From assembly GCA_964346295.1 (NCBI GenBank), contig CAYFUG010000002.1, positions 7,355-71,354 of the forward strand: a stretch of 64,000 nucleotides of DNA, written 5' to 3'. Under the pieces are notes generated by a model. The model saw only the letters and a program-made list of their open reading frames with translations, did no database searches and had not been told where the DNA came from. Position numbers and translations under genes: made by a program. This document shows positions 9,399 through 63,417 of the stretch, piece by piece. The stretch comes from an uncultured Bdellovibrionales bacterium (GTDB lineage: Bacteria; Patescibacteriota; Minisyncoccia; Moranbacterales; DUUL01). How positions within the stretch are numbered: the stretch's first letter is position 1; each line of letters starts with the position of its first letter.

Positions 9399-10160
9399 CT
9401 AAGCTTTCGCCTTAATCGCGGGAGCCTTCCGCTTAGTCTCTAAAATCTTTTTCAAAAATACTCCGCAAATATACCGCAAAGAAGACAAGGCGTCATCATT
9501 AGCTGGGATGGGAAACTCCACTAACTCTGGATTACTATTAGAGTCCACTAAGCCAATCACCGGAATTCCCATCTTCTGAGATTCTTTAACTGCCAGTTTA
9601 TCTTTATTGATGTCTAAAACAATTACCAATCCCGGGAGCTCCTTAAGATTAATCAGGCCGCCCATTTTTTCTTCGATTCGCTCCAACTCCTTGGATAACT
9701 TAGTTCGCTCTAGCTTAGTTAAACCAGAAAGACGCCCTTTTTTAAGGGTTTCTTGGCTATCCAAATAGTATTTAATCCTTTTCTTGATAACCGGAAAATT
9801 GGTTAAGGTTCCTCCTATCCAACGCTCATTGACATAAGTAATATCAGCTTTTTCCGCCACTGCTTGCACCAAATCCTTAGCTTGTCGCTTAGTTCCGACC
9901 AAAGTAATAGGCTGGCCTTTTTCTATTACTCTCGCTACTTCTCCTAAAGCCTTCTGAAAAAGCTTCAGGGATTTCTCTAGGTCAATGATATGCACACCAT
10001 TACGCATCCCAAAGATATAAGAATTCATCTTGGGATTCCAGCGAGATTTTTTATGGCCAAAATGCATTCCGGCTTTCAGCATCGCTTCTAGCGATAGATC
10101 GTACTTGTTTTCTTCAGCTTCTGCCGGAGAAGAAGCTGCAACTGCTTGTTTTTCAGTCAT
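9399..10160 (-). CDS. rpsB: 30S ribosomal protein S2
   Basis: MLKAGMHFGHKKSRWNPKMNSYIFGMRNGVHIIDLEKS is the canonical bS2 signature. Confidence 0.95.
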   Translation of the reverse strand: MTEKQAVAASSPAEAEENKYDLSLEAMLKAGMHFGHKKSRWNPKMNSYIFGMRNGVHIIDLEKSLKLFQKALGEVARVIEKGQPITLVGTKRQAKDLVQAVAEKADITYVNERWIGGTLTNFPVIKKRIKYYLDSQETLKKGRLSGLTKLERTKLSKELERIEEKMGGLINLKELPGLVIVLDINKDKLAVKESQKMGIPVIGLVDSNSNPELVEFPIPANDDALSSLRYICGVFLKKILETKRKAPAIKAKA

Positions 10161-10187
10161 AGTTTAGGTTTCCTTATAAATTATTAG

Positions 10188-10420
10188 GAAACTGCCTAAG
10201 GACTATTCTTCTTTGATGAAAGCTCTCTAATTTCGTGCCTCACTTTGGAAGGTAAGATCAGAAGGCAAGAAAGGACTTTTAGTTTAATCTACTGGTAGTA
10301 GTTAGTCTAAGTTACCGGCAAGAACTCTGAACGAGAAAACTCTGAAAAAGAATCCTTGAATTTTTCCTCTCCAGAGCGAAATGGGCACCCGAAATTTAAG
10401 GTTTTCAGGGGAAAATATAG
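10188..10420. repeat. Direct repeat copy 1 (about 233 bp) in the rpsB upstream region
   Basis: gaaactgcctaaggactattcttc...gaaatttaaggttttcagg recurs 498 bp downstream at about 97% identity; its ends loosely resemble the arm motifs of the intergenic repeat family. Confidence 0.85.
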
Positions 10421-10685
10421 CTTTTTAGACAGTTTCTCAGCCTCTATTCGGCTTTTAATCCAGCTCTAAACCAAAACCCAACTTGGCCCTGGCAAGGAAA
10501 GCTAGCCACCGAATATGTGATATAGGAAAATTCTAGCTAACTGATGGTTTTTGTCAATGCTAAAGTTCCATTCTTCGTCAACACCCTCTAAGTCTTCCAA
10601 CTACTCTTCTCGTGGATACTCAAAAAATCAGACTTATCAAGGATAATTCGTAAGGTCGACAGTGGGTCCCTAGCGATCCCCCCGA

Positions 10686-10918
10686 GAAACTGCCTAAGGA
10701 CTATTCTTCGTTGATGAAAGCTCTCTAATTTCGTGCCTCACTTTGGAAGGTAAGATCAGAAGGCAAGAAAGGACTTTTAGTTTAATCTACTGGTAGTAGT
10801 TAGTCTAAGTTACCGGCAAGAACTCTGAACGAGAAAACTCTGAAAAAGAATCCTTGAATTTTTCCTCTCCAGAGCGAAATGGGCAACCGAAATTTAAGGT
10901 TTTCAGCGGAAAATACAC
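10686..10918. repeat. Direct repeat copy 2 (about 233 bp), separated from copy 1 by about 265 bp of unique sequence
   Basis: Near-identical to 10188-10420 with four visible substitutions. Confidence 0.85.
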
Positions 10919-10922
10919 TCGA

Positions 10923-12362
10923 CTAAGGACTAATTACTATGTCCCCCCTGGATTTAATCTGATAGGTTTTGCTCTCTCCCTTTTCGCCAATAATTTCCAC
11001 TTCTCCCTCTAGCTGATCAATTCCCGACTGTTTTTGAATCTGAAGGAGATAATCTTCAAAATTAACTTTCCAGGGCAATTGGTAGTCAAAACTAATTTTC
11101 TGAGACTTTCCTAGAGGAACTGCCAACCGAGTAGCAAAATACTTTCTTCCTAATTCTTCTCCTATTTCAACTTGCTCTGGAGCACTAGAATCCAACAACT
11201 GAGAGCCAGGAGGTAAATAAATTTTTAAGTAAGTATGGTAGTCAGAAGTAAATTCATCTCGTAAGCGCCCATGATGCCAATAAAAAACTGACAACTGAGT
11301 CTGGGCAGGTTCCTGAGATAAGTCTATCTGGTACTGAAAAGAAATTTCTACTAATCGGTCGTTGTCAAATGGGTCTAAGTTGGTATTAGTCACCAGTAGA
11401 TAATCCTCCCTCTCTTCTAGTTGACTCAAGGGCGCTGCCCATCCGACTGTCTTGATTCGAGCCTGGAGATTAGAATCCACAAAGTACACTCTTAGGTCCT
11501 TAGTTTTAATTTCCTGAGTTAATTGCTCCAAAACTTGGGATTTCTTTTCCCATCCAGCCTGAGAAAACTTTCCCCAAATAGCCCTCCAAATAGCCTCTTC
11601 TAAATTGAAGTATTCTTTTTCGGGAATTCTACTCTCCCCTGGCTGAAGAAGTTGATACTTCACTTGATTATTACTGCGAATGCTCTGAAGAACATTCTGA
11701 TGGCTTATCTCTCCTCTCCAGCCAACTACTTCTACTGATCCTAAAATCTTCAAAAGAGGCTTCAAGGATTGCCTAGAAATAGCCACCAATGCCTCCGGAA
11801 GAGCCTCCCTCTTTTTCCTTTCGTTAAAAGAAGAGTTAAAAACCTCTAATCCCAACTGGGCGCTTTGGGGGAAATCGGGCCACCAGTTGCTATTAGCCAC
11901 TTGCCAACTTTCCTGATTGCGAGGGGATATTTGACTTAAAATGTCCGGAAAGTTTTCTTTCTTATTGGAGTTTGCGCTTAGATCGAAAAAGTGGGCATCA
12001 AAAAATTCCACTTGAGAAACTTTTTCGCCCTGAAAACTTACTAGGGCAATAGTTTCAATCTGACCTCCTCCCGGTCTCAAACGATCAGTGTTTTGAAAAA
12101 CAATCAGCAGACTTTTCTCTTCTCCTTTTTTTAAAAAATCAGCAGCTACCCCTAGAAACACTTTTAATTGACCTTTAGTTTCCTCTTCCAGAGAAGACCA
12201 GTTTACCAAGGGATGAAGATACCTCAAGAAACTAGTTGCTCCTTGTCTTTGAAATTTCCAGTACCCCCCCCAGCTCAATAAAAAAACTCCGGCTACCGCC
12301 CAGAACAGCACCCAGAACTTCCAACTTTTATAACTTTTTTTAGGAGAGAAAGATAGTCGCAT
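10923..12362 (-). CDS. Hypothetical N-terminally membrane-anchored protein
   Basis: Long ORF with a single N-terminal TM helix (WKFWVLFWAVAGVFLLSWGGYW); no recognisable catalytic motif. Confidence 0.6.
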   Translation of the reverse strand: MRLSFSPKKSYKSWKFWVLFWAVAGVFLLSWGGYWKFQRQGATSFLRYLHPLVNWSSLEEETKGQLKVFLGVAADFLKKGEEKSLLIVFQNTDRLRPGGGQIETIALVSFQGEKVSQVEFFDAHFFDLSANSNKKENFPDILSQISPRNQESWQVANSNWWPDFPQSAQLGLEVFNSSFNERKKREALPEALVAISRQSLKPLLKILGSVEVVGWRGEISHQNVLQSIRSNNQVKYQLLQPGESRIPEKEYFNLEEAIWRAIWGKFSQAGWEKKSQVLEQLTQEIKTKDLRVYFVDSNLQARIKTVGWAAPLSQLEEREDYLLVTNTNLDPFDNDRLVEISFQYQIDLSQEPAQTQLSVFYWHHGRLRDEFTSDYHTYLKIYLPPGSQLLDSSAPEQVEIGEELGRKYFATRLAVPLGKSQKISFDYQLPWKVNFEDYLLQIQKQSGIDQLEGEVEIIGEKGESKTYQIKSRGDIVISP

Positions 12363-16282: not shown

Positions 16283-16311
16283 AAACACTCGACCAATTTC
16301 AGTCTCAGTCT

Positions 16312-16462
16312 AGGGCTTTCAAATTTGAGCAAAGCTCTAGGCGACGCCGAGACTTTGGCCGACCTGTCCCGTCTAGCTTTAGCGATGCGGGAGCCGTACT
16401 GATTGGTACGGTGAGGTCAAAACGCAGGCGGCAACAACGAGATTTGCCAAACTTGAAAATCC
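16312..16462 (+). repeat. Intergenic structured repeat, copy A (about 150 nt), ending 1 nt before the start codon of the downstream gene
   Basis: 5' arm agggctttcaaatttgagcaaagctctagg and 3' arm gtacggtgaggtcaaaacgcaggcggcaacaacgagatttgccaaacttgaaaatcc are shared with copies at 34969-35130, 26175-26289, 61190-61269, 17690-17772 and inverted at 42706-42822. The terminal arms are mutually complementary. Confidence 0.8.
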
Positions 16463-16463
16463 T

Positions 16464-17519
16464 ATGAAAACAACCTATTTTTCCACATTCATCTCCGGCG
16501 CCCAAGAAATAGTCCGACGCGCCCTTCAAAAAAGATCCCGGGTCAAAATCATTGACCTGCTGGACGGTTTAGTAGTGTACCAGACGGACTATAACGAGAA
16601 AGATTTGCGAGAAATTCGCTTTTTTAACAACACTTTTCGTCTCCTGGGCAGCTACCAAAATGTCCACGATTTTCTAGATCTAATCAAGGCCGTTACCAAG
16701 GACAAATCTCTCGGTGGAACTCTCAAAAATCTTTTTACAACCCCTACCACCTATCGGCTATTCACCTCAGAGGAAAACCGCTCTATTAATCCGGGCTTGC
16801 CGGCCTTAGAAACTCTAGAGCAAAAAATCTCTCAAAATCGCTACCTAAAAACCGATTTTAAAAAATACCAACAAGAATTTTGGCTCATTTGGCGAAGAGG
16901 AAACCAGGGCTTTCTAGGCGCTCGTATTACTGGTAAAAAGCCTCTCGCCAAGCACCTCAAAGCTGGACAACTCCGCCCAGAACTGGCTCACTTAATTTGC
17001 CTAGCTTCTCGCCCTGGCCCCCAGGAGGTAATTTTGGATCCCTTTGCCGGCCAAGGAGGATTGCTAACGGAGCGCTTACGAGCTTTTCCTTTTAAAAAAG
17101 CTCTCGCCTTAGAAGAAGACGAGAAACTAGCTAATGACCTCAAGGGTAAAATTTTCCGCGCCTATCCCAAAGAAAAAGTCCAAGTCCGCCGAGAGAGCGC
17201 CCTGGAAATGGGATTTTTAGAAAATAACTCCATTGATAAGATCATCACCGATCCGCCCTGGGGACATTTTAAAAAACTAGATCAACCAGAAGAATTTTAC
17301 ACCCAGATGCTCCAGGAATTTTACCGGGTGCTTAAGTCGAGAGGCCTGGCAGTAATTTTGATGGGCGAGAATTTTCAATTTGACCAGATACTCCAAAGCA
17401 TGACAACTAAAGACAAAAATAATCAGGCAGATCCACTTCCCTCACCTTGGAAGATATCAGCCCAACATCACCTGTTAGTTTCTGGCCGAAAAGCTAATTT
17501 GTGGATTTTAAAAAAATAA
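16464..17519 (+). CDS. THUMP-domain class I SAM-dependent RNA methyltransferase (COG0116-like, N2-guanine/N6-adenine type)
   Basis: DPFAGQGG SAM motif I and DPPWG motif IV; N-terminal THUMP-like region. Confidence 0.8.
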   Translation: MKTTYFSTFISGAQEIVRRALQKRSRVKIIDLLDGLVVYQTDYNEKDLREIRFFNNTFRLLGSYQNVHDFLDLIKAVTKDKSLGGTLKNLFTTPTTYRLFTSEENRSINPGLPALETLEQKISQNRYLKTDFKKYQQEFWLIWRRGNQGFLGARITGKKPLAKHLKAGQLRPELAHLICLASRPGPQEVILDPFAGQGGLLTERLRAFPFKKALALEEDEKLANDLKGKIFRAYPKEKVQVRRESALEMGFLENNSIDKIITDPPWGHFKKLDQPEEFYTQMLQEFYRVLKSRGLAVILMGENFQFDQILQSMTTKDKNNQADPLPSPWKISAQHHLLVSGRKANLWILKK

Positions 17520-17628: not shown

Positions 17629-17689
17629 AAACTAGAAATGACTAACAGTCCAAGAACTTTCTCGTTTTAGGACATTTTTAGAGAAAAGT

Positions 17690-17772
17690 GAGGCTTTAGT
17701 TGAGAATTACTGAAGCGTACAGCGAGAGTAAAACGCAGCTTTTGACAACGAAATTTTCAAAGTGAGAAAGTC
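17690..17772 (+). repeat. Intergenic structured repeat, compact copy E
   Basis: gaggctttagttgagaattactgaagc + gtacagcgagagtaaaacgcagcttttgacaacgaaattttcaaagtgagaaagtc matches the family 5' and 3' blocks; lies just 3' of the tRNA-like gene. Confidence 0.65.
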
Positions 17773-17784
17773 TTAGCAATACAG

Positions 17785-17883
17785 TGCAGACGAGAGGATT
17801 CGAACCTCTAACCTCCTTACTTTCTCTCGTTGACACTGCAACGAGAGAAAGTAAAGCGCTCAGCCTTTTTGAGCTTCGTCTGC
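17785..17883 (-). tRNA. tRNA-like gene with a 25-nt insertion in the anticodon loop forming an 18-bp continuous hairpin; anticodon ambiguous (UUC/Glu if 37/38 intron; GAA/Phe alternative)
   Basis: Minus strand reads GCAGACG-AA-GCUC-AAAAAGGCU-GAGC-G-CUUUA-[32 nt]-UAAGG-AGGUU-AGAGG-UUCGAAU-CCUCU-CGUCUGC-A. It has a 7-bp acceptor stem, D arm with GG, and canonical T arm (G53, UUCGAAU, C61). A8 is atypical. No encoded CCA. Confidence 0.6.
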
Positions 17884-24700: not shown

Positions 24701-25936
24701 ATGAGTTCACTCCAAGACCGAAAAGATCTGGAACCAAGAACCCAGAAACCTAACCAGCCCATTTTGGCTCTTGCCCCCATGGCCGGCTTCACTGACCTCC
24801 CTTTTCGCCTCCTTTGCAAACAACATGGAGCTGATTTGCTGTTCTCTGAGATGATTAGCGCCACTGGACTTTTTCACGAAAAACGAGATAAATCCCTCCA
24901 ACTAGCCCAATCCTGCCCAGAAGACTCTCCGATGTTTTTGCAGCTTTTCGGTTCCGACCCTCAGCATTTCGCCTTCGCCACCCGATTAATCAATCAACTC
25001 CCAGTCAGAGCCAATCCATCTTATTCCAGAAATGATCCTAACAAGAAATCTGAGGAGTTTGTTTTTAAAAAATTTCTAGGAGAATTCGAGCATCGAAGCG
25101 AGATGTACTTAAGGTACGACGAACGAGACGCGGAGAATTCAACAACCAAATTTGAGGAAAACAAACTTCTCAGGCCAGAAGGAATTGACCTAAACCTTGG
25201 CTGCCCCGTCAAAAAAGTCCTTCGCCAAGAGGCCGGCTGTGCTCTAATGGAGAAGCCGCACCTGGTGCGAGAAATTCTCAAGAATATTTTAGGCAACACT
25301 ACTCTCCCGGTTTCTATCAAAATCCGGTCCCGAGGCAAGAGCCTAGACGCCCTCAAGTTTCTAAATGCTCTAGCTGATTTGGACTGGCAATTAGTTACCG
25401 TCCACGCTCGTTCTTTGAATCAAGGTTTTTCCGGCGATCCAGATTGGGCTTTAGTGAAAGAAATCAAGAGAAACTTTCCCCACAAAACCGTTCTGGCCAA
25501 CGGCGGAATTACTGATCTTGCTACCGCCCAAAAAGCCCTAGAAGAAAGTCGAGCTGATGGCTTGGCGCTAGCCCGAGGCGTCCTCGGTAACCCTTGGTTA
25601 TTCAATAAGATCAAGACCAATAGTCGCCCCCTTTCGAAAGGGGAACCAGAAGATTGGCAGTTATCTGAAGCAGAAATATTGGCTACTCCCAGAAAAAAAA
25701 ATGAGGCGCTCGAAAAGCAAATCCCCCTTAGCCGAGTTAGAGCCACCGCCCTCCAGCACGCCAGATTATTTCAACAAATTTTTCCAACAAACGACTTAAA
25801 GCCCCTCCGATCTCATCTTATTTGGTACTTCAAAAATTTTTCTGGAAGCAAAAAAACTCGCTCCCAACTCACTGGAGTGAAAACCTTAGAAGAACTAGAA
25901 AAGATTTTGCAACAAACAATCAGTTCCTCCCTCTAG
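24701..25936 (+). CDS. tRNA-dihydrouridine synthase (Dus family) with internal insertion
   Basis: LALAPMAGFTDLPFRLLCKQHGADLLFSEMISA is the Dus N-terminal signature. Confidence 0.85.
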   Translation: MSSLQDRKDLEPRTQKPNQPILALAPMAGFTDLPFRLLCKQHGADLLFSEMISATGLFHEKRDKSLQLAQSCPEDSPMFLQLFGSDPQHFAFATRLINQLPVRANPSYSRNDPNKKSEEFVFKKFLGEFEHRSEMYLRYDERDAENSTTKFEENKLLRPEGIDLNLGCPVKKVLRQEAGCALMEKPHLVREILKNILGNTTLPVSIKIRSRGKSLDALKFLNALADLDWQLVTVHARSLNQGFSGDPDWALVKEIKRNFPHKTVLANGGITDLATAQKALEESRADGLALARGVLGNPWLFNKIKTNSRPLSKGEPEDWQLSEAEILATPRKKNEALEKQIPLSRVRATALQHARLFQQIFPTNDLKPLRSHLIWYFKNFSGSKKTRSQLTGVKTLEELEKILQQTISSSL

Positions 25937-26145: not shown

Positions 26146-26174
26146 ATAAACAATATCTAATCAACAACACAAAA

Positions 26175-26289
26175 CTTTTAAGTTTTAGGAAAGCTCTAGA
26201 CGAAGTCGAGGTTTTGAATAAGGCGCACTGAAATGTACGGCGATCTCAAAACGCAGGCAACAATAACGAGATTTTCAAAATTTGAAAGC
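26175..26289 (+). repeat. Intergenic structured repeat, copy B (about 115 nt)
   Basis: cttttaagttttaggaaagctctagacgaagtcgag ... gtacggcgatctcaaaacgcaggcaacaataacgagattttcaaaatttgaaagc. The ORF track translates it as MYGDLKTQATITRFSKFESF. Confidence 0.8.
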
Positions 26290-26301
26290 TTTGACTCTAC
26301 C

Positions 26302-34914: not shown

Positions 34915-34968
34915 AATTCCCTTTTAAACATTAGATAACTCCAAAAAAACCAACCGCCTTCACAGCCC

Positions 34969-35130
34969 AGGGCTTTCAAGTTTGAGTGAAGCTCTACCTG
35001 AGTCTCGTCAACAGGCGAGATCAGCGCCGAGGTTTCGCTCGTAGAGAAGACATGCCATGGCATGTCTCTACCCATACTGTAAAAACAAAACGCAGGCGAC
35101 AACAACGAGATTCACCAAACTTAAAAGTCC
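34969..35130 (+). repeat. Intergenic structured repeat, copy C (about 162 nt), abutting the ftsH stop codon
   Basis: agggctttcaagtttgagtgaagctctacc ... aaaacgcaggcgacaacaacgagattcaccaaacttaaaagtcc. Internal perfect palindrome agacatgccatggcatgtct; inner helix gaagctctac/gtagagaag. Confidence 0.8.
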
Positions 35131-36984
35131 CTAGTCTTTTACCAACGCATCAAACTCATCCTTCTCCAAAGTCTCTTTCCTAATCAACTCCTTAGCTACC
35201 TTCTCTAAAGTCTCTGCTTTTTCGTCTAGAATCTCTCGAGCCTTTTGATGAGCCTCCTCAATAAAGCGACGCACTTCCTCGTCAATGCTTTCCGCCACTC
35301 TCTCGGAGTAGTTTTTGCGCTCTTGAATATCCCGCCCCAAAAATACCAAATCATCATTTTCGCCATAAGTAACCGGCCCCAACTTACTCATTCCAAAGCG
35401 AGTCACCAACTTACGAGCCATCTCCGTCGCCCGCTCTAGATCATTAGAAGCTCCCGTGGTCATCTCATCAAAAATTCGCTCCTCGGCGGCATAACCACCC
35501 AACAGCACCGCCAACTGATCCAAAAAGTAAGAGCGGAACTTCAAAGAACGATCCTTGTCGGGCACATTGAGAGTATAGCCAGCCGCGTGCCCCCGAGAAA
35601 CAATGGAGACTTTATGAACCGGATCAGCATTGGGCAAAGAAGCAGAAATCAAAGCATGCCCTCCTTCGTGATAAGCAGTAACCTTTTTTTCCTCTGGAGA
35701 AAAAACCTTGCTGCGCCGCTCCGGCCCCAAAATTACCTTTTCGATTGCCTCCCTCAGCTCGTCCATGCCAGTGGTTTTCTTGTCCCGCCGAGCCGCCAAA
35801 ATAGCTCCTTCATTAACCAAGTTTGCCAAATCCGCTCCAGAAAAACCCGGTGTTCGCTCAGCAATTTGACGCAATTTAACATCTTTTTCCATTTTTTTAT
35901 CAGTCACATGCAATTTTAAAATTGCCTCTCTTTCTTCAATATCGGGATTATCAATAGTCACTCGCCGATCAAAGCGTCCTGGGCGCAAAAGAGCGGGATC
36001 CAATACATCTGGTCGGTTAGTAGCCGCAATCACAATTACATTCACATTAGTGTCAAATCCGTCCATTTCTACCAAGATTTGATTAAGGGTCTGTTCTCGC
36101 TCGTCGTTACCACCGCCCACGCCGGCTCCTCGATGCCGACCTACTGCGTCAACTTCGTCAATAAAAACAATAGCCGGTGCATTTTTTTTAGCCTGCTTGA
36201 AGAGATCTCGCACTCGGCTAGCTCCCACTCCCACAAACATTTCTACAAATTCGCTTCCAGAGATTGAGAAAAAAGGCACATTAGCCTCTCCAGCCACTGC
36301 CTTGGCCAAAAGAGTTTTTCCAGTACCAGGAGGGCCCAACAGCAAAAATCCTCGCGGGATTCGCGCGCCCAAATCCCAAAATTTCTTAGGATTACGCAAA
36401 AATTCCACTACTTCGTAAAGCTCCTCTTTGGCCTCCTTGGCCCCCGCTACATCTTTGAAGGTAATTCGCCCTTCTTTGTCACGAGCCGGAAGCAAAACTC
36501 GAGCTCGAGAGCGACCAAAGGTCATGGCTTGATTATTGCCTCGCTGGGCTTGCCGCAATAAAAACCAAATAAAAAAAGCAATAAAGAAGAAAGGGAGTAT
36601 AAAAGGAATAAAAACACCCACCCAAAAATCTCGCCCCGAAGTGTCCTCCAGGTTTAACTGAATATCCCTTAGTTTATCCTTCTCCACTCCTACATTAGCC
36701 AAAGATTCCGTCAGGGAACTCTCCGGCTCCTTACGAGAAACTTCCTTGGTGCCATCTTTCAGCTCAATTTCCAGCTCATTGCCCTGGACTTTAATCTCAG
36801 TTACCTCTTCCTCGTTGATTTGACTGGCCAATTCGCTCAGGGAAACCTCCTTTTTCTCTTCTAAAGGAACAGAATAGAGCAAAACTAGACCAGAAATTAC
36901 CACAAAGATACCCAAAAAAATAAATAAATTTCGGGTCAATTTTTTAATAGGACCGCGATTATTAGGATTAACACTTTTTGCCAC
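35131..36984 (-). CDS. ftsH: ATP-dependent zinc metalloprotease FtsH
   Basis: GPPGTGKT Walker A, IDEVD Walker B, second region of homology, HEGGHA zinc motif. Confidence 0.95.
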
Positions 36985-42610: not shown

Positions 42611-42705
42611 TCAAGTACAAATCGCTTCCCCCAGTTTACTCCGACTGGAAGCTCCGAGACCTCCGTTCCTCCGGGAATGGGGGTCGTTTATTAGTGGAGG
42701 AATTA

Positions 42706-42822
42706 CGCATTTGGAAAATTTCGTTGTTACAAGCTGCGTTTAGCGCTCACCGTACCCTTCAGTACGCCTCCCGCTAAGCCTCGCTTGCGCCTAGTAATTT
42801 CCTCAAATCCGTAATCCCTAGG
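42706..42822 (-). repeat. Intergenic structured repeat, copy K, inverted orientation
   Basis: Minus strand reads ctagggattacggatttgaggaaattactaggcgcaagcgagg ... gtacggtgagcgctaaacgcagcttgtaacaacgaaattttccaaatgcg, matching the family 5' and 3' arms. Confidence 0.75.
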
Positions 42823-42866
42823 CTATACATCAGCGAGCGACCATTGAAGGCTATAATTATTAAGTA

Positions 42867-47546: not shown

Positions 47547-47769
47547 AGAAACAAAAGATTAACAAATTTTATTACTAACCACAGATACCAACCCTTCTCG
47601 CTAAAAAGCCAAGATTAGCCTTGATGTTATTAAGCCAATCTTAGCACTAATGACAAAAAAATCAAAAGAGTCTCCCGGCAGGAAGACTCTTTTGAGAAAA
47701 TAAAGACTTAAGGTTTTCAATTTTTAGAAAATTTTAGGAAAAATCGAGTACTGAGCGAGATATACCGAA

Positions 47770-47830
47770 GTGTATAACAAACGAGTAACAGAGATTTTGA
47801 CATCAAAATTTTCAAAATTTGGAAGCCCCT
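47770..47830. repeat. Diverged repeat-family copy with palindromic core, directly 3' of tuf
   Basis: aacaaacgagtaacagagattttgacatcaaaattttcaaaatttggaagcccc resembles the family 3' block plus the palindrome. Confidence 0.45.
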
Positions 47831-47839
47831 CTTTTGTTT

Positions 47840-60683: not shown

Positions 60684-61154
60684 CTACTTGAGTTTACCGC
60701 AGAATTCCTCGATTTCTTTTTTCACCTCTTTAGCTTCAGCTTTCACTTGCTTATCCTTAATTCCTAATTTCGCCACGGGAGCTTGAAGTAACTCTTCCAA
60801 GTCCCTGAAGGTGTTGCTAACTTCTCCCCCAAAAGTACAGAAGAGGGCTATCTTGGTATTTTTGAGGGATTCTTGATGCTCCAAGGCATAAGTTCGAATG
60901 GCGGGAGTCGCCGTTCCCACCCACACCGGAGTGCCTAAAATCACTAGATCGTAGTCCGCTGGATCTTGAGTAAACTTAATTTTGGTAGCCTTTTTCTTGA
61001 GGGCATCGTGGCCTCCCACTAAAAACCCTTTGATGCCCTTACGACTCTTTTCGTCTTTAATTTCATCTAAGTCCGCCTCTAAAATCTTGGCGATTTGCTC
61101 CGCTACTTGTTTAGTATGCTCCGTTCTAGAGTAATAAGCAATGAGAATTTTCAT
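60684..61154 (-). CDS. Flavodoxin-like fold protein (flavodoxin / NAD(P)H-dependent FMN reductase family); start moved to MKILIAYYS
   Basis: MKILIAYYSRTEHTKQVAEQIA flavodoxin N-terminal phosphate-binding pattern. The track ORF's extra 25 codons run into the repeat element. Confidence 0.7.
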   Translation of the reverse strand: MKILIAYYSRTEHTKQVAEQIAKILEADLDEIKDEKSRKGIKGFLVGGHDALKKKATKIKFTQDPADYDLVILGTPVWVGTATPAIRTYALEHQESLKNTKIALFCTFGGEVSNTFRDLEELLQAPVAKLGIKDKQVKAEAKEVKKEIEEFCGKLK

Positions 61155-61189
61155 TTTAGTTTTAATGCAAAAATGAGAGCGATAAGATT

Positions 61190-61269
61190 TAAGGAGTTTC
61201 CTCCTTAAATCTTTGTACGGTGAAATCAAAATGCAAGCGACAACAACGAGATTTTCAAAAAAGAAAGTC
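61190..61269 (+). repeat. Intergenic structured repeat, copy D, abutting the pnp stop codon
   Basis: taaggag-tttc-ctcctta hairpin + gtacggtgaaatcaaaatgcaagcgacaacaacgagattttcaaaaaagaaagtcc. The ORF track translates it as MYGEIKMQATTTRFSKK. Confidence 0.75.
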
Positions 61270-63417
61270 CTACTTCAACCGTTTCACTTCATTCTCCATT
61301 CCCTTCATAGTCAAATTAATCCGGCCCATTTGATCAATCTCCGCTACTTTAACTTTAACCTTCTGACCTACCTTGAGATAGTTTTCCACTTTATCAATTC
61401 GCTCGTCAGCAATCTTGGAAATATGCACCAAGCCATCTTTTCCGCCCGGCCAGAGCTCCACAAAGGCTCCAAAGTCCATCAATTTGACCACTCGAGCATC
61501 CGGATAAATCTCGCCTGCTTCCACTTCACGAACAATATCCTGGATCATCTTTTGGGCTTTTTGACCACCCTCTCCGTTTTCGGCAGTGATGAAGATAGTC
61601 CCATCGTCTTCAATGTCAATATTAGCCCCAGTTTCATCAATAATCTCGTTGATAATTTTTCCGCCTGGCCCAATCACCTCCCGAATCTTTTCTTCGGCAA
61701 TTTTCATGGTAATAATACTCGGGGCGTAAGATGAAAGTTCTGCTCGAGGCTCTGGGATAGCTGCTAACATCACCTCCATAATCTCCATTCGAGCCTTATG
61801 AGCCTGCTCCAGCACCTCAATCACTACCTCGGGAGAAATTCCGTCAATTTTCACATCCATCTGCATAGCAGTGATTCCGTCTTTAGTTCCTGCCACCTTA
61901 AAGTCCATATCACCCCAATGGTCTTCCGGTCCTTGAATGTCGGAAAGAATCTTGTACTCGCCATTTTCTCCAGTGATAATTCCCATCGCGATCCCACTCA
62001 CCGGGCTTTTGATTGGAACTCCCGCGTCCATTAAGGAGAGAGTGGATCCGCAAGTAGAGGCCATCGAAGAAGATCCATTAGAACCCAACACTTCACTTAC
62101 CAACAGCATAGTATACGGAAAGTCTTCCTTAGAAGGCAGTACCGGAAGCAAGGCTTTTTCCGCTAAGGCTCCGTGACCAATTTCTCGTCTCCCAGGGCCA
62201 CGCATTGGTCGTACTTCTCCCACACTGAAGGGAGGGAAGTTATAGTGGTGGATATAGCGCTTCTTCTCATCAACCTCCATTGTATCAATAATTTGCTGAT
62301 CACCAGGAGCTCCTAAGGTAGTCACATTAAGAACTTGTGTTTCTCCTCGTTGAAAAAGAGCGCTTCCGTGAATCCGCGGCAATACTCCTACCTTAGAAAT
62401 AATCTTCCGAACCTCATCGGTTCGCCTTCCATCGGGACGAGCCTCTTCCTGAAGAACTTTTTCGTGCAAAATTTCATTGAGACGATTCTCGAATACCAAA
62501 TCGGCTTCTGACCAGCGTTGTTCTTGCAATTTTTTTTCTTCGGCAGTTTGAGCCGGGAACTGCTTCTTTAAAAGCCCCTTGAGGCCGTCTTTAATTTTGT
62601 CCATCTTACCCTTTTGATCGTCTTTAGCTTTAGTATAAAAGGCGTCAGTAAGATCTTCTTGCTCCAAGTAATCTCGCACTTGCTTCTCCCAAGCTTCTTC
62701 TGGCTCAGTAAGAGGCACTGTAGTTTTTTCCTTACCTAACTCGTCGATAATTGACTGCTCAAAACGAGCAACCTTTTGGACTTCTTCGTAAGCCTGCCCA
62801 ATTGCCTCCGCCATCTCTTGATTAGAAATTTCTTCTCCATCCGCCTCAATCATATTGATTTTGTCAGCAGTTCCGGCCACCAACAAATCCAAGTCGCTCT
62901 CTTCCAAATGATCCGCTGCCGGATTGATTACTCGTTCGTTTTCTACCCGACCAATTCGAGCGGCTGCCACTGGTCCCCGCCAAGGAATATTAGAAACTCC
63001 CAATGCCAAAGAAGCGGCAATTATCCCAACAATCGAAGGATCATTTTCTTTGTCGATGGAAAGCACCGTGATAATTACCTGCACTTCGTTGCGCATCCGC
63101 TCATCAAAAAGCGGCCGGATAGTCCGGTCAATGATACGCCCATTGAGAATAGCCTTATCAGAAGGGCGACCTTCTCGCTTAATAAAACGCGAACCTTTAA
63201 TTTTATTGGCCGCGTAATAACGCTCTTCGTAATCCACAAACAGCGGGAAGAAGTTCATGCCTTCTCGTCGTTCTTTGCTCATGGTAGCAGTAGCCAACAC
63301 TACTGTGTCACCACATTGCACCTTAACTGAGCCGTTGGCTTGTTGCGCCAATTCGCCCAATTCTGCTTTCAGTTGCTGGCCGCCAAAATCGACCGCAAAT
63401 TCTTTTTTGTTCATCAA
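61270..63417 (-). CDS. pnp: Polyribonucleotide nucleotidyltransferase (PNPase)
   Basis: Two RNase PH domains, KH and C-terminal S1 (GQKVKVKVAEIDQMGRINLT); 715 aa. Confidence 0.95.
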   Translation of the reverse strand: MMNKKEFAVDFGGQQLKAELGELAQQANGSVKVQCGDTVVLATATMSKERREGMNFFPLFVDYEERYYAANKIKGSRFIKREGRPSDKAILNGRIIDRTIRPLFDERMRNEVQVIITVLSIDKENDPSIVGIIAASLALGVSNIPWRGPVAAARIGRVENERVINPAADHLEESDLDLLVAGTADKINMIEADGEEISNQEMAEAIGQAYEEVQKVARFEQSIIDELGKEKTTVPLTEPEEAWEKQVRDYLEQEDLTDAFYTKAKDDQKGKMDKIKDGLKGLLKKQFPAQTAEEKKLQEQRWSEADLVFENRLNEILHEKVLQEEARPDGRRTDEVRKIISKVGVLPRIHGSALFQRGETQVLNVTTLGAPGDQQIIDTMEVDEKKRYIHHYNFPPFSVGEVRPMRGPGRREIGHGALAEKALLPVLPSKEDFPYTMLLVSEVLGSNGSSSMASTCGSTLSLMDAGVPIKSPVSGIAMGIITGENGEYKILSDIQGPEDHWGDMDFKVAGTKDGITAMQMDVKIDGISPEVVIEVLEQAHKARMEIMEVMLAAIPEPRAELSSYAPSIITMKIAEEKIREVIGPGGKIINEIIDETGANIDIEDDGTIFITAENGEGGQKAQKMIQDIVREVEAGEIYPDARVVKLMDFGAFVELWPGGKDGLVHISKIADERIDKVENYLKVGQKVKVKVAEIDQMGRINLTMKGMENEVKRLK

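Follow-up and report, generated by a model that had tools for sequence, protein, structure and literature searches.

A probable MITE-like palindromic element in two copies at rpsB of a Patescibacteria genome, and the structured leader that one copy interrupts

The two near-identical non-coding repeats that lie upstream of rpsB in the stretch of DNA analysed here (the window, 64,000 nucleotides in its entirety) are rather likely to be two recent copies of one imperfectly palindromic element of ~251 nt with the character of a MITE, that is, a miniature transposable element that has no transposase of its own. The repeat pair itself is most likely of a fairly ordinary sort, namely a small insertion element with a palindromic build; the leader that it interrupts, a conserved structured RNA upstream of rpsB, is the more interesting object at the locus. 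On this reading, a streamlined genome of the candidate phyla radiation (CPR) would carry non-coding insertion sequences that have recently been active, or have recently been duplicated. Their sites would be the region that controls an essential ribosomal operon and the end of an adjacent gene, whose C-terminus has apparently been rewritten.

The repeat pair and the empty sites in related genomes

The rpsB gene, which encodes ribosomal protein S2 (253 aa; ORF list and Pfam PF00318), is located on the minus strand at positions 9399-10160; downstream of it come a small ORF, a gene with an HD domain and tsf. Upstream of rpsB, also on the minus strand, lies a DUF4012 gene of 479 aa (10923-12362; Pfam PF13196). 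The repeats are found between these two genes. Copy 1 is the complete palindromic element (~251-253 nt; 10188-10440), as delimited by empty-site comparison, folding and arm similarity, and copy 2 (10686-10918) is without ~20 nt of one terminal arm, as seen by alignment of copies and flanks, pattern search and reading of the sequence. Along the coding strand, the order is DUF4012 stop codon, 5 nt, copy 2, 265 nt of unique sequence, copy 1, 27 nt that include the Shine-Dalgarno AAGGAAA (inside 10161-10187), and rpsB.

A repeat search of the 64-kb window returned the pair as a direct repeat of 230 nt with 99% identity (10188-10417 versus 10686-10915) and a start-to-start distance of 498 nt. Aligned with MAFFT, the copies are alike from 10188 and 10686 to ~10419 and 10917, respectively, with four substitutions in 232 columns (98.3% identity). 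These fall at copy 1 positions 10212, 10388, 10409 and 10418, and the differences between the copies are T/G, C/A, G/C and T/C. Both copies have the same orientation and are 1.7% diverged. The initial annotation of this DNA had described an identity of ~97% with four substitutions and a unique spacer of ~265 bp, both of which are essentially right. It had also placed copy 1 27 nt from the rpsB ATG and seen no ORF in the repeats; these observations hold, with 27 nt between 10160 and 10188 and a longest stop-free stretch of 44 codons in any frame of the repeat unit. All stop-free translations of the unit, joined in a chimeric query, gave 0 matches in a protein collection of 5.8 billion clusters.

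The orthologous region was compared in five related Patescibacteria genomes (one relative represented by L086 and L088, and L107, L108, L109 and L111). The nearest relative has S2 and DUF4012 proteins that are 86% and 57% identical to those of the window, respectively, and the same gene order. Sampling of this lineage is sparse: among named S2 proteins, those of Candidatus Moranbacteria come closest, with ~63% identity, and a search of a genome contig collection with the S2 protein gave best matches of ~45% identity (Bacteroidota, Veillonella), with no close relative among them.

In the nearest relative, the intergenic region between DUF4012 and rpsB is 199 nt long and matches only the unique spacer of the window. 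Approximately 125 nt of it align to that spacer at ~88-90% identity, covering the promoter TTGACA-16-TAGAAT and the leader down to its end at ...CCGAGTAGAGGCT, and in this relative the leader directly adjoins AATAATTATAAGGAAA-ATG. In L086, the sequence across the empty site is ...TAGAGGCT|AATAATTATAAGG. These flanks recur in the window as ...CCGAATAGAGGCT (which ends at 10441) and AATAATTTATAAGGAAA (from 10187), parted by 253 nt (10188-10440). This insert consists of copy 1 plus 20 further bases that are absent from copy 2. In the four distant relatives, whose S2 proteins are 61-65% identical, only 8-12 nt separate the leader from the Shine-Dalgarno. No counterpart of either repeat is present at rpsB in the five related genomes. 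Presence/absence at orthologous sites, a hallmark of MITEs, is therefore seen here, the site being empty in L086/L088, L107, L108, L109 and L111, and since both the nearest and the four distant relatives have the empty site, the insertion of copy 1 arose in the lineage of the window.

Termini and fold of the element, and the junction of copy 2

The ends of copy 1 are formed by two 12-nt inverted repeats that are complementary at 11 of 12 positions. The rpsB-proximal one, GAAACTGCCTAA (10188-10199, plus strand), was located by pattern search for GAAACTGYCTAA; the leader-proximal one, TTAGACAGTTTC (10425-10436; GAAACTGTCTAA on the minus strand), by pattern search and folds. The latter falls beyond the 232-nt stretch common to both copies, and it pairs with 10188-10199 in DNA as well as RNA folds. 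Three sites in the 64 kb match the pattern GAAACTGYCTAA, all of them at repeat ends (both ends of copy 1 and the start of copy 2), and the motif of the element termini can be written as GAGAAACTGYCTAA. The inverted-repeat termini coincide with the boundaries that had been set independently by the empty-site comparison, as is characteristic of a MITE; so is the small size of the inserted element (251-253 nt, under ~500 bp), which has no coding capacity. The target duplication at copy 1 is at most 2 bp and ambiguous (AG at 10186-10187 and 10439-10440), and the final 2-4 nt of the insert, TCAG (10437-10440), may include it.

Between the termini, the two arms are similar to each other as imperfect inverted repeats over ~75 nt, with a local score of 21 versus 9.5 ± 1.6 in shuffled sequences (reached in 0 of 500 shuffles). 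Folding of each copy, named as a check in the initial annotation, had an outcome that depends on the segment that is folded. The full insert with both termini forms a single closed imperfect hairpin of -69 kcal/mol (z = -2.5; 2 of 200 shuffles as good), whereas folds of the shared 233 nt alone do not exceed those of shuffled sequences in stability, whichever strand is taken (z = -0.2 and -0.45).

The intact end of copy 2 begins at 10686, with GAAACTGCCTAA, beside unrelated flank. On this side, the sequence shared by the copies sets in precisely at an inverted-repeat terminus, with unrelated flanks, as is expected of transposition and not of segmental duplication. The other end of copy 2 diverges ~20 nt before the terminus, does not have that inverted repeat and lies 5 nt from the DUF4012 stop codon. 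At this junction, the last two codons and the stop codon of DUF4012 read AGT CCT TAG (Ser-Pro-stop). A BLASTP alignment of the DUF4012 protein with its orthologue P0002 stops at residue 477 of 479 (...RGDIVI), and the orthologue goes on for 8 residues (EVVKEGKD) beyond the end of the homology. The coincidence of the copy 2 junction with the end of the DUF4012 homology points to a rewriting of the gene end, either by the insertion or by a subsequent small deletion that would also have taken away the terminus of copy 2.

Two short motifs recur around the same junction. A 10-nt motif, CTAAGGACTA, is found close to where each copy begins and once more just past copy 2, at the DUF4012 end. The G-run GGGGGGA, which occurs on both sides of copy 2, is present in the final part of the DUF4012 gene and just beyond copy 2. 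Both lie 5-13 nt away from the homology breakpoints and do not coincide with them. In addition, the new DUF4012 tail with its stop codon, AGTCCTTAG, repeats a motif near the other end of the element (10923-10960 and 10676-10700). The tail motif and GGGGGGA could be a footprint of the arrival of copy 2.

These observations can be combined in the following history. Both copies would have been acquired recently in the Patescibacteria lineage of the window. The element would have moved by transposition in trans, probably in a local hop. Copy 1 would have entered the rpsB 5' untranslated region exactly between the ancestral structured leader and the Shine-Dalgarno, and copy 2 the extreme 3' end of DUF4012, where it is short of the final ~20 nt of one arm, either through loss or from the outset; the gene would since have ended in a new two-codon tail and stop at the copy 2 junction. 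The 265-nt spacer would be the original intergenic region, with the promoter and leader of rpsB. Copy 1 would be transcribed from the conserved promoter within the rpsB mRNA and tolerated there as a self-contained hairpin. In a fold of this predicted 365-nt untranslated region, leader and insert form separate domains. The closing stem of the insert would bring the leader and the ribosome-binding site together again, which may be why the insertion is tolerated. A recent tandem insertion of a mobile repeat had been proposed in the initial annotation. The insertion is borne out by the clean 253-nt insert, the inverted repeats and the palindromic arms; the tandem arrangement is not, because the copies flank 265 nt of other sequence.

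Mobility of the element is something that we infer, since the analysis brought to light neither a further copy nor a transposase nor an unambiguous target duplication. Other copies had been named as a further check on the repeats, and none turned up beyond the two in the 64-kb window, in the contigs of the relative or among the phages, plasmids and viral contigs searched. More precisely, blastn in distant mode gave no matches among phages and plasmids, and viral contigs were scanned with the two termini separated by a gap and with a 21-mer of the unit, to no effect. The JGI metagenome collection, scanned once for an exact 21-mer, gave nothing either, which is a weak negative because that collection does not contain the source contig. 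The copy number itself (two, 498 nt apart, within 64 kb) counts against the MITE reading. So does the Pfam annotation of the window, which includes no transposase or other mobility gene, and so does the finding that no called protein resembles the translation of the unit. The terminal motif is absent elsewhere in the 64-kb window, so that there is no autonomous partner with the same termini there. Copy 2 lacks one terminus, and its mode of arrival is therefore unreadable from copy 2, a further point against. Finally, two independent random insertions 0.5 kb apart are improbable if the element neither hopped locally nor reached a high copy number.

Promoter and leader of rpsB

The unique spacer contains a predicted sigma-70-type promoter for rpsB (TTGACA, 16 nt, TAGAAT; 11/12), detected by promoter scan at 10530-10557 on the minus strand. 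Both of its hexamers are identical in L086 and L088, and by this sequence comparison the predicted promoter is ancestral and not part of the element.

Downstream of the promoter, at 10441-10516 on the minus strand, the spacer holds a conserved structured leader of rpsB, a candidate S2 autoregulatory RNA identified with an alignment of six Patescibacteria sequences (the insert being removed from that of the window) and a covariance model. The leader is ~88-90% identical to that of L086, whereas the adjoining intergenic DNA is unalignable, and the insertion of copy 1 parts it from its Shine-Dalgarno. The six sequences share the motif CACATAYTYRR-YGG...CTT.CC-hairpin-AAAAG..GG...AAA...YRRRTAGMGG.T. 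The alignment supports two helices of 8 and 7 pairs, in which all of the sequence-by-pair cells (90/90) are standard pairs, compared with 30-51% of cells in control registers slid by 1-3 columns, and compensatory double changes affect 7 of the 15 pairs. The covariance model matches the window at 10437-10521 with 85 bits. It recovers the motif at the six Patescibacteria loci and at none of 80 rpsB loci of other phyla. In the relatives, the leader is located at 7338-7421 in L086, 2909-2983 in L107, 1723-1802 in L108, 1396-1483 in L109 and 1412-1484 in L111.

The leader segment 10441-10516 has no match in Rfam, and the published r-leader candidates of Eckert & Weinberg 2020 (PMC7247131) include no Patescibacteria S2 leader. 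A search of the metagenome collection with a 20-nt leader pattern returned 10 chance matches in high-GC coding DNA. Among ribosomal-protein autoregulatory leaders, one that responds to S2 is the rpsB-tsf leader of gammaproteobacteria. By analogy with known ribosomal-protein leaders and from its position, the spacer leader is plausibly an S2 autoregulatory leader.

What the locus exposes is the real leader, with two helices that carry compensatory changes across six Patescibacteria genomes and that Rfam does not cover, and it offers a testable candidate for S2 autoregulation in Patescibacteria. The natural insertion would be a ready-made experiment on whether the distance from leader to ribosome-binding site matters. 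For annotators, the locus is a warning that the repeat is not to be taken for the rpsB leader.

Alternative origins and known systems

In the main rival to a MITE-like element that inserted twice, the element entered only one time, and the other copy was produced locally, inside this 1-kb region, by a non-transpositional duplication through template switching, illegitimate recombination or gene conversion. We consider this unlikely. It gains weight from the low number of known copies (two), which moreover lie next to each other in one orientation with 98.3% identity, and from the missing terminus of copy 2, and either CTAAGGACTA or GGGGGGA could be the microhomology of a rearrangement. The microhomologies are, however, displaced by 5-13 nt from the actual breakpoints. 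A tandem event would also have doubled the spacer, yet promoter and leader are single, and one boundary shared by the copies falls exactly at the inverted-repeat terminus.

A second possibility, which we regard as improbable, is that the repeat is a functional RNA module, a cis-regulatory leader or a small RNA gene, that was duplicated around the rpsB promoter. By location, copy 1 does belong to the predicted 5' untranslated region of rpsB, and copy 2 to the 3' region of the upstream gene, and the better-than-shuffled fold of the element with both termini would suit an RNA. Against this, the repeat is absent at the orthologous position in all five relatives, which keep the spacer leader, and the 233 nt that the copies share fold at chance level on both strands. 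A promoter and terminator scan found no promoter-like or terminator-like site within the unit. At gathering thresholds, Rfam detected one tRNA only in the whole window and nothing at the repeat region, and at E <= 10 the locus gave noise only (best score 19 bits versus a cut-off of 88). The proposal in the initial annotation that the repeats are a duplicated regulatory RNA or leader for rpsB-tsf is not supported by these comparisons: no repeat accompanies rpsB in the five relatives, and the leader that covaries is the unique spacer.

Even less probable, in our estimate, is that the palindromic insert is a working part of rpsB control and not merely tolerated. Were this so, the insert would sit at the single point that parts the S2 leader from the ribosome-binding site, and its stem would restore their proximity. 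A hairpin of 250 nt could then add control through RNase III processing, mRNA stability or a temperature- or helicase-sensitive switch. Recombination between the direct copies, which flank promoter and leader, might in addition delete this control region reversibly.

The initial annotation had further suggested that the repeats are larger relatives of an intergenic repeat family of the window. This family has 8 copies in 64 kb, 7 of them on the plus strand, with lengths of 135-180 nt and scores of 68-134 bits (HMM and covariance model). The members lie at 16300-16466(+), 17640-17777(+), 25040-25174(+), 26159-26295(+), 34957-35134(+), 42695-42831(-), 47697-47832(+) and 61140-61275(+). Each has a ~25-nt terminal stem/inverted repeat, in which the copies differ by compensatory changes, and an internal hairpin that varies and precedes a conserved box, GTACGGTGAG..CAAAACGCAGGC..CAACAACGAGATTTTC. 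Two members that were tested gave no Rfam match, and the box is absent from the viral contigs scanned. The family could consist of MITEs or of small RNAs. Like its members, the repeats at rpsB are intergenic, non-coding sequences of the same genome that are closed by a long terminal stem/inverted repeat. The sequence and the termini differ, and the family is much more abundant. The resemblance that had been noticed is real at the level of short strings (TTTGATGAAAGCTCTC versus TTTGAGCAAAGCTCTA, 13/16; GGTAAGATCAGAAGGCAAG versus GGTGAGATCAAAACGCAGG), but a 16-mer with 3 mismatches is found 5 times where 1.75 are expected, a count attained in 4 of 100 shuffles, so that the echo is within chance. 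Moreover, nhmmer with the family profile gave no match on the repeats at E <= 10, the covariance model of the family (R1) scores them at the noise level of 8.7 bits (E = 8.5), compared with 68-134 bits for members, and the terminal inverted repeats are different in sequence. Enlarged membership of this family is thus very improbable.

Two other features of the window involve members of the intergenic family. One member immediately adjoins a tRNA-like gene of 99 nt (17785-17883, minus strand), which Rfam scores at 47 bits and ARAGORN missed. It has ~28-32 extra nt at the site of the anticodon loop, with a perfect 13-bp hairpin (CTTTCTCTCGTTG-CAGTGT-CAACGAGAGAAAG), and could represent a short intron, an extended anticodon arm or a pseudo-tRNA. 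Another member, 25040-25174, is located near the 5' end of a 411-aa ORF for Dus (tRNA-dihydrouridine synthase; 24701-25936, plus strand). Either the true start of Dus is downstream of 25040-25174, or translation passes through the element, which then forms an N-terminal extension.

A diversity-generating retroelement was also considered and rejected: the substitutions are not adenine-specific, both copies are non-coding and the gene tables list no reverse transcriptase.

An artefact of assembly, for which repeats of this size are a classic source and which might be feared because only one assembled contig spans the whole locus, is already largely refuted and the least probable reading of all, as copy-specific SNPs are tied to the proper flanks in two assemblies of another project and the relative shows the same succession of DUF4012, promoter/leader and rpsB. 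The window is contained in JGI contig Ga0153774_1000093 (76 kb), and the independent metagenome assemblies are ENA ERZ922774 and ERZ922771 (PRJEB25599, microbial mat, megahit k127). In these, a contig with an identical rpsB begins within copy 1 and a contig with an identical DUF4012 gene terminates within copy 2. The contigs break 123-127 nt from the nearest copy-specific SNP (k = 127), and each of them retains the SNPs of its own copy. A break about one k-mer away from a SNP, with the SNPs kept, is the behaviour of a true two-copy repeat in a de Bruijn assembly, and it places both copies in independent data. The initial annotation had raised the artefact as something to exclude; the duplication is genuine.

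With respect to known systems, the repeats share with the S2-responsive rpsB-tsf leader of gammaproteobacteria and the candidates of Eckert & Weinberg 2020 a position immediately upstream of rpsB-tsf, in the untranslated region. Unlike ribosomal-protein leaders, they are not conserved at rpsB in the relatives, and it is the spacer segment 10441-10516 that behaves like an r-leader.

The closer likeness, one of general design and not of sequence, is to Correia/NEMIS of Neisseria, ERIC/IRU of enterobacteria and RUP of Streptococcus pneumoniae. Like the element at rpsB, all of these are short, non-coding, imperfect palindromes with terminal inverted repeats. They occupy intergenic transcribed DNA near the starts or ends of genes, differ in presence/absence between related genomes and, as predicted here for copy 1, are transcribed together with their neighbours in the form of a long hairpin. 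The literature was searched for MITEs of Patescibacteria (CPR), with no relevant result. The MITE-like element favoured here differs from the known ones in several respects. No known element was found to resemble it in sequence. At ~251 nt it is longer than Correia (~100-155 nt), ERIC (~127 nt) and RUP (~107 nt). Its near-perfect terminal repeat comprises only 12 nt and its target duplication at most 2 bp, two copies of it are known and no partner transposase was found, and its host belongs to the Patescibacteria (CPR).
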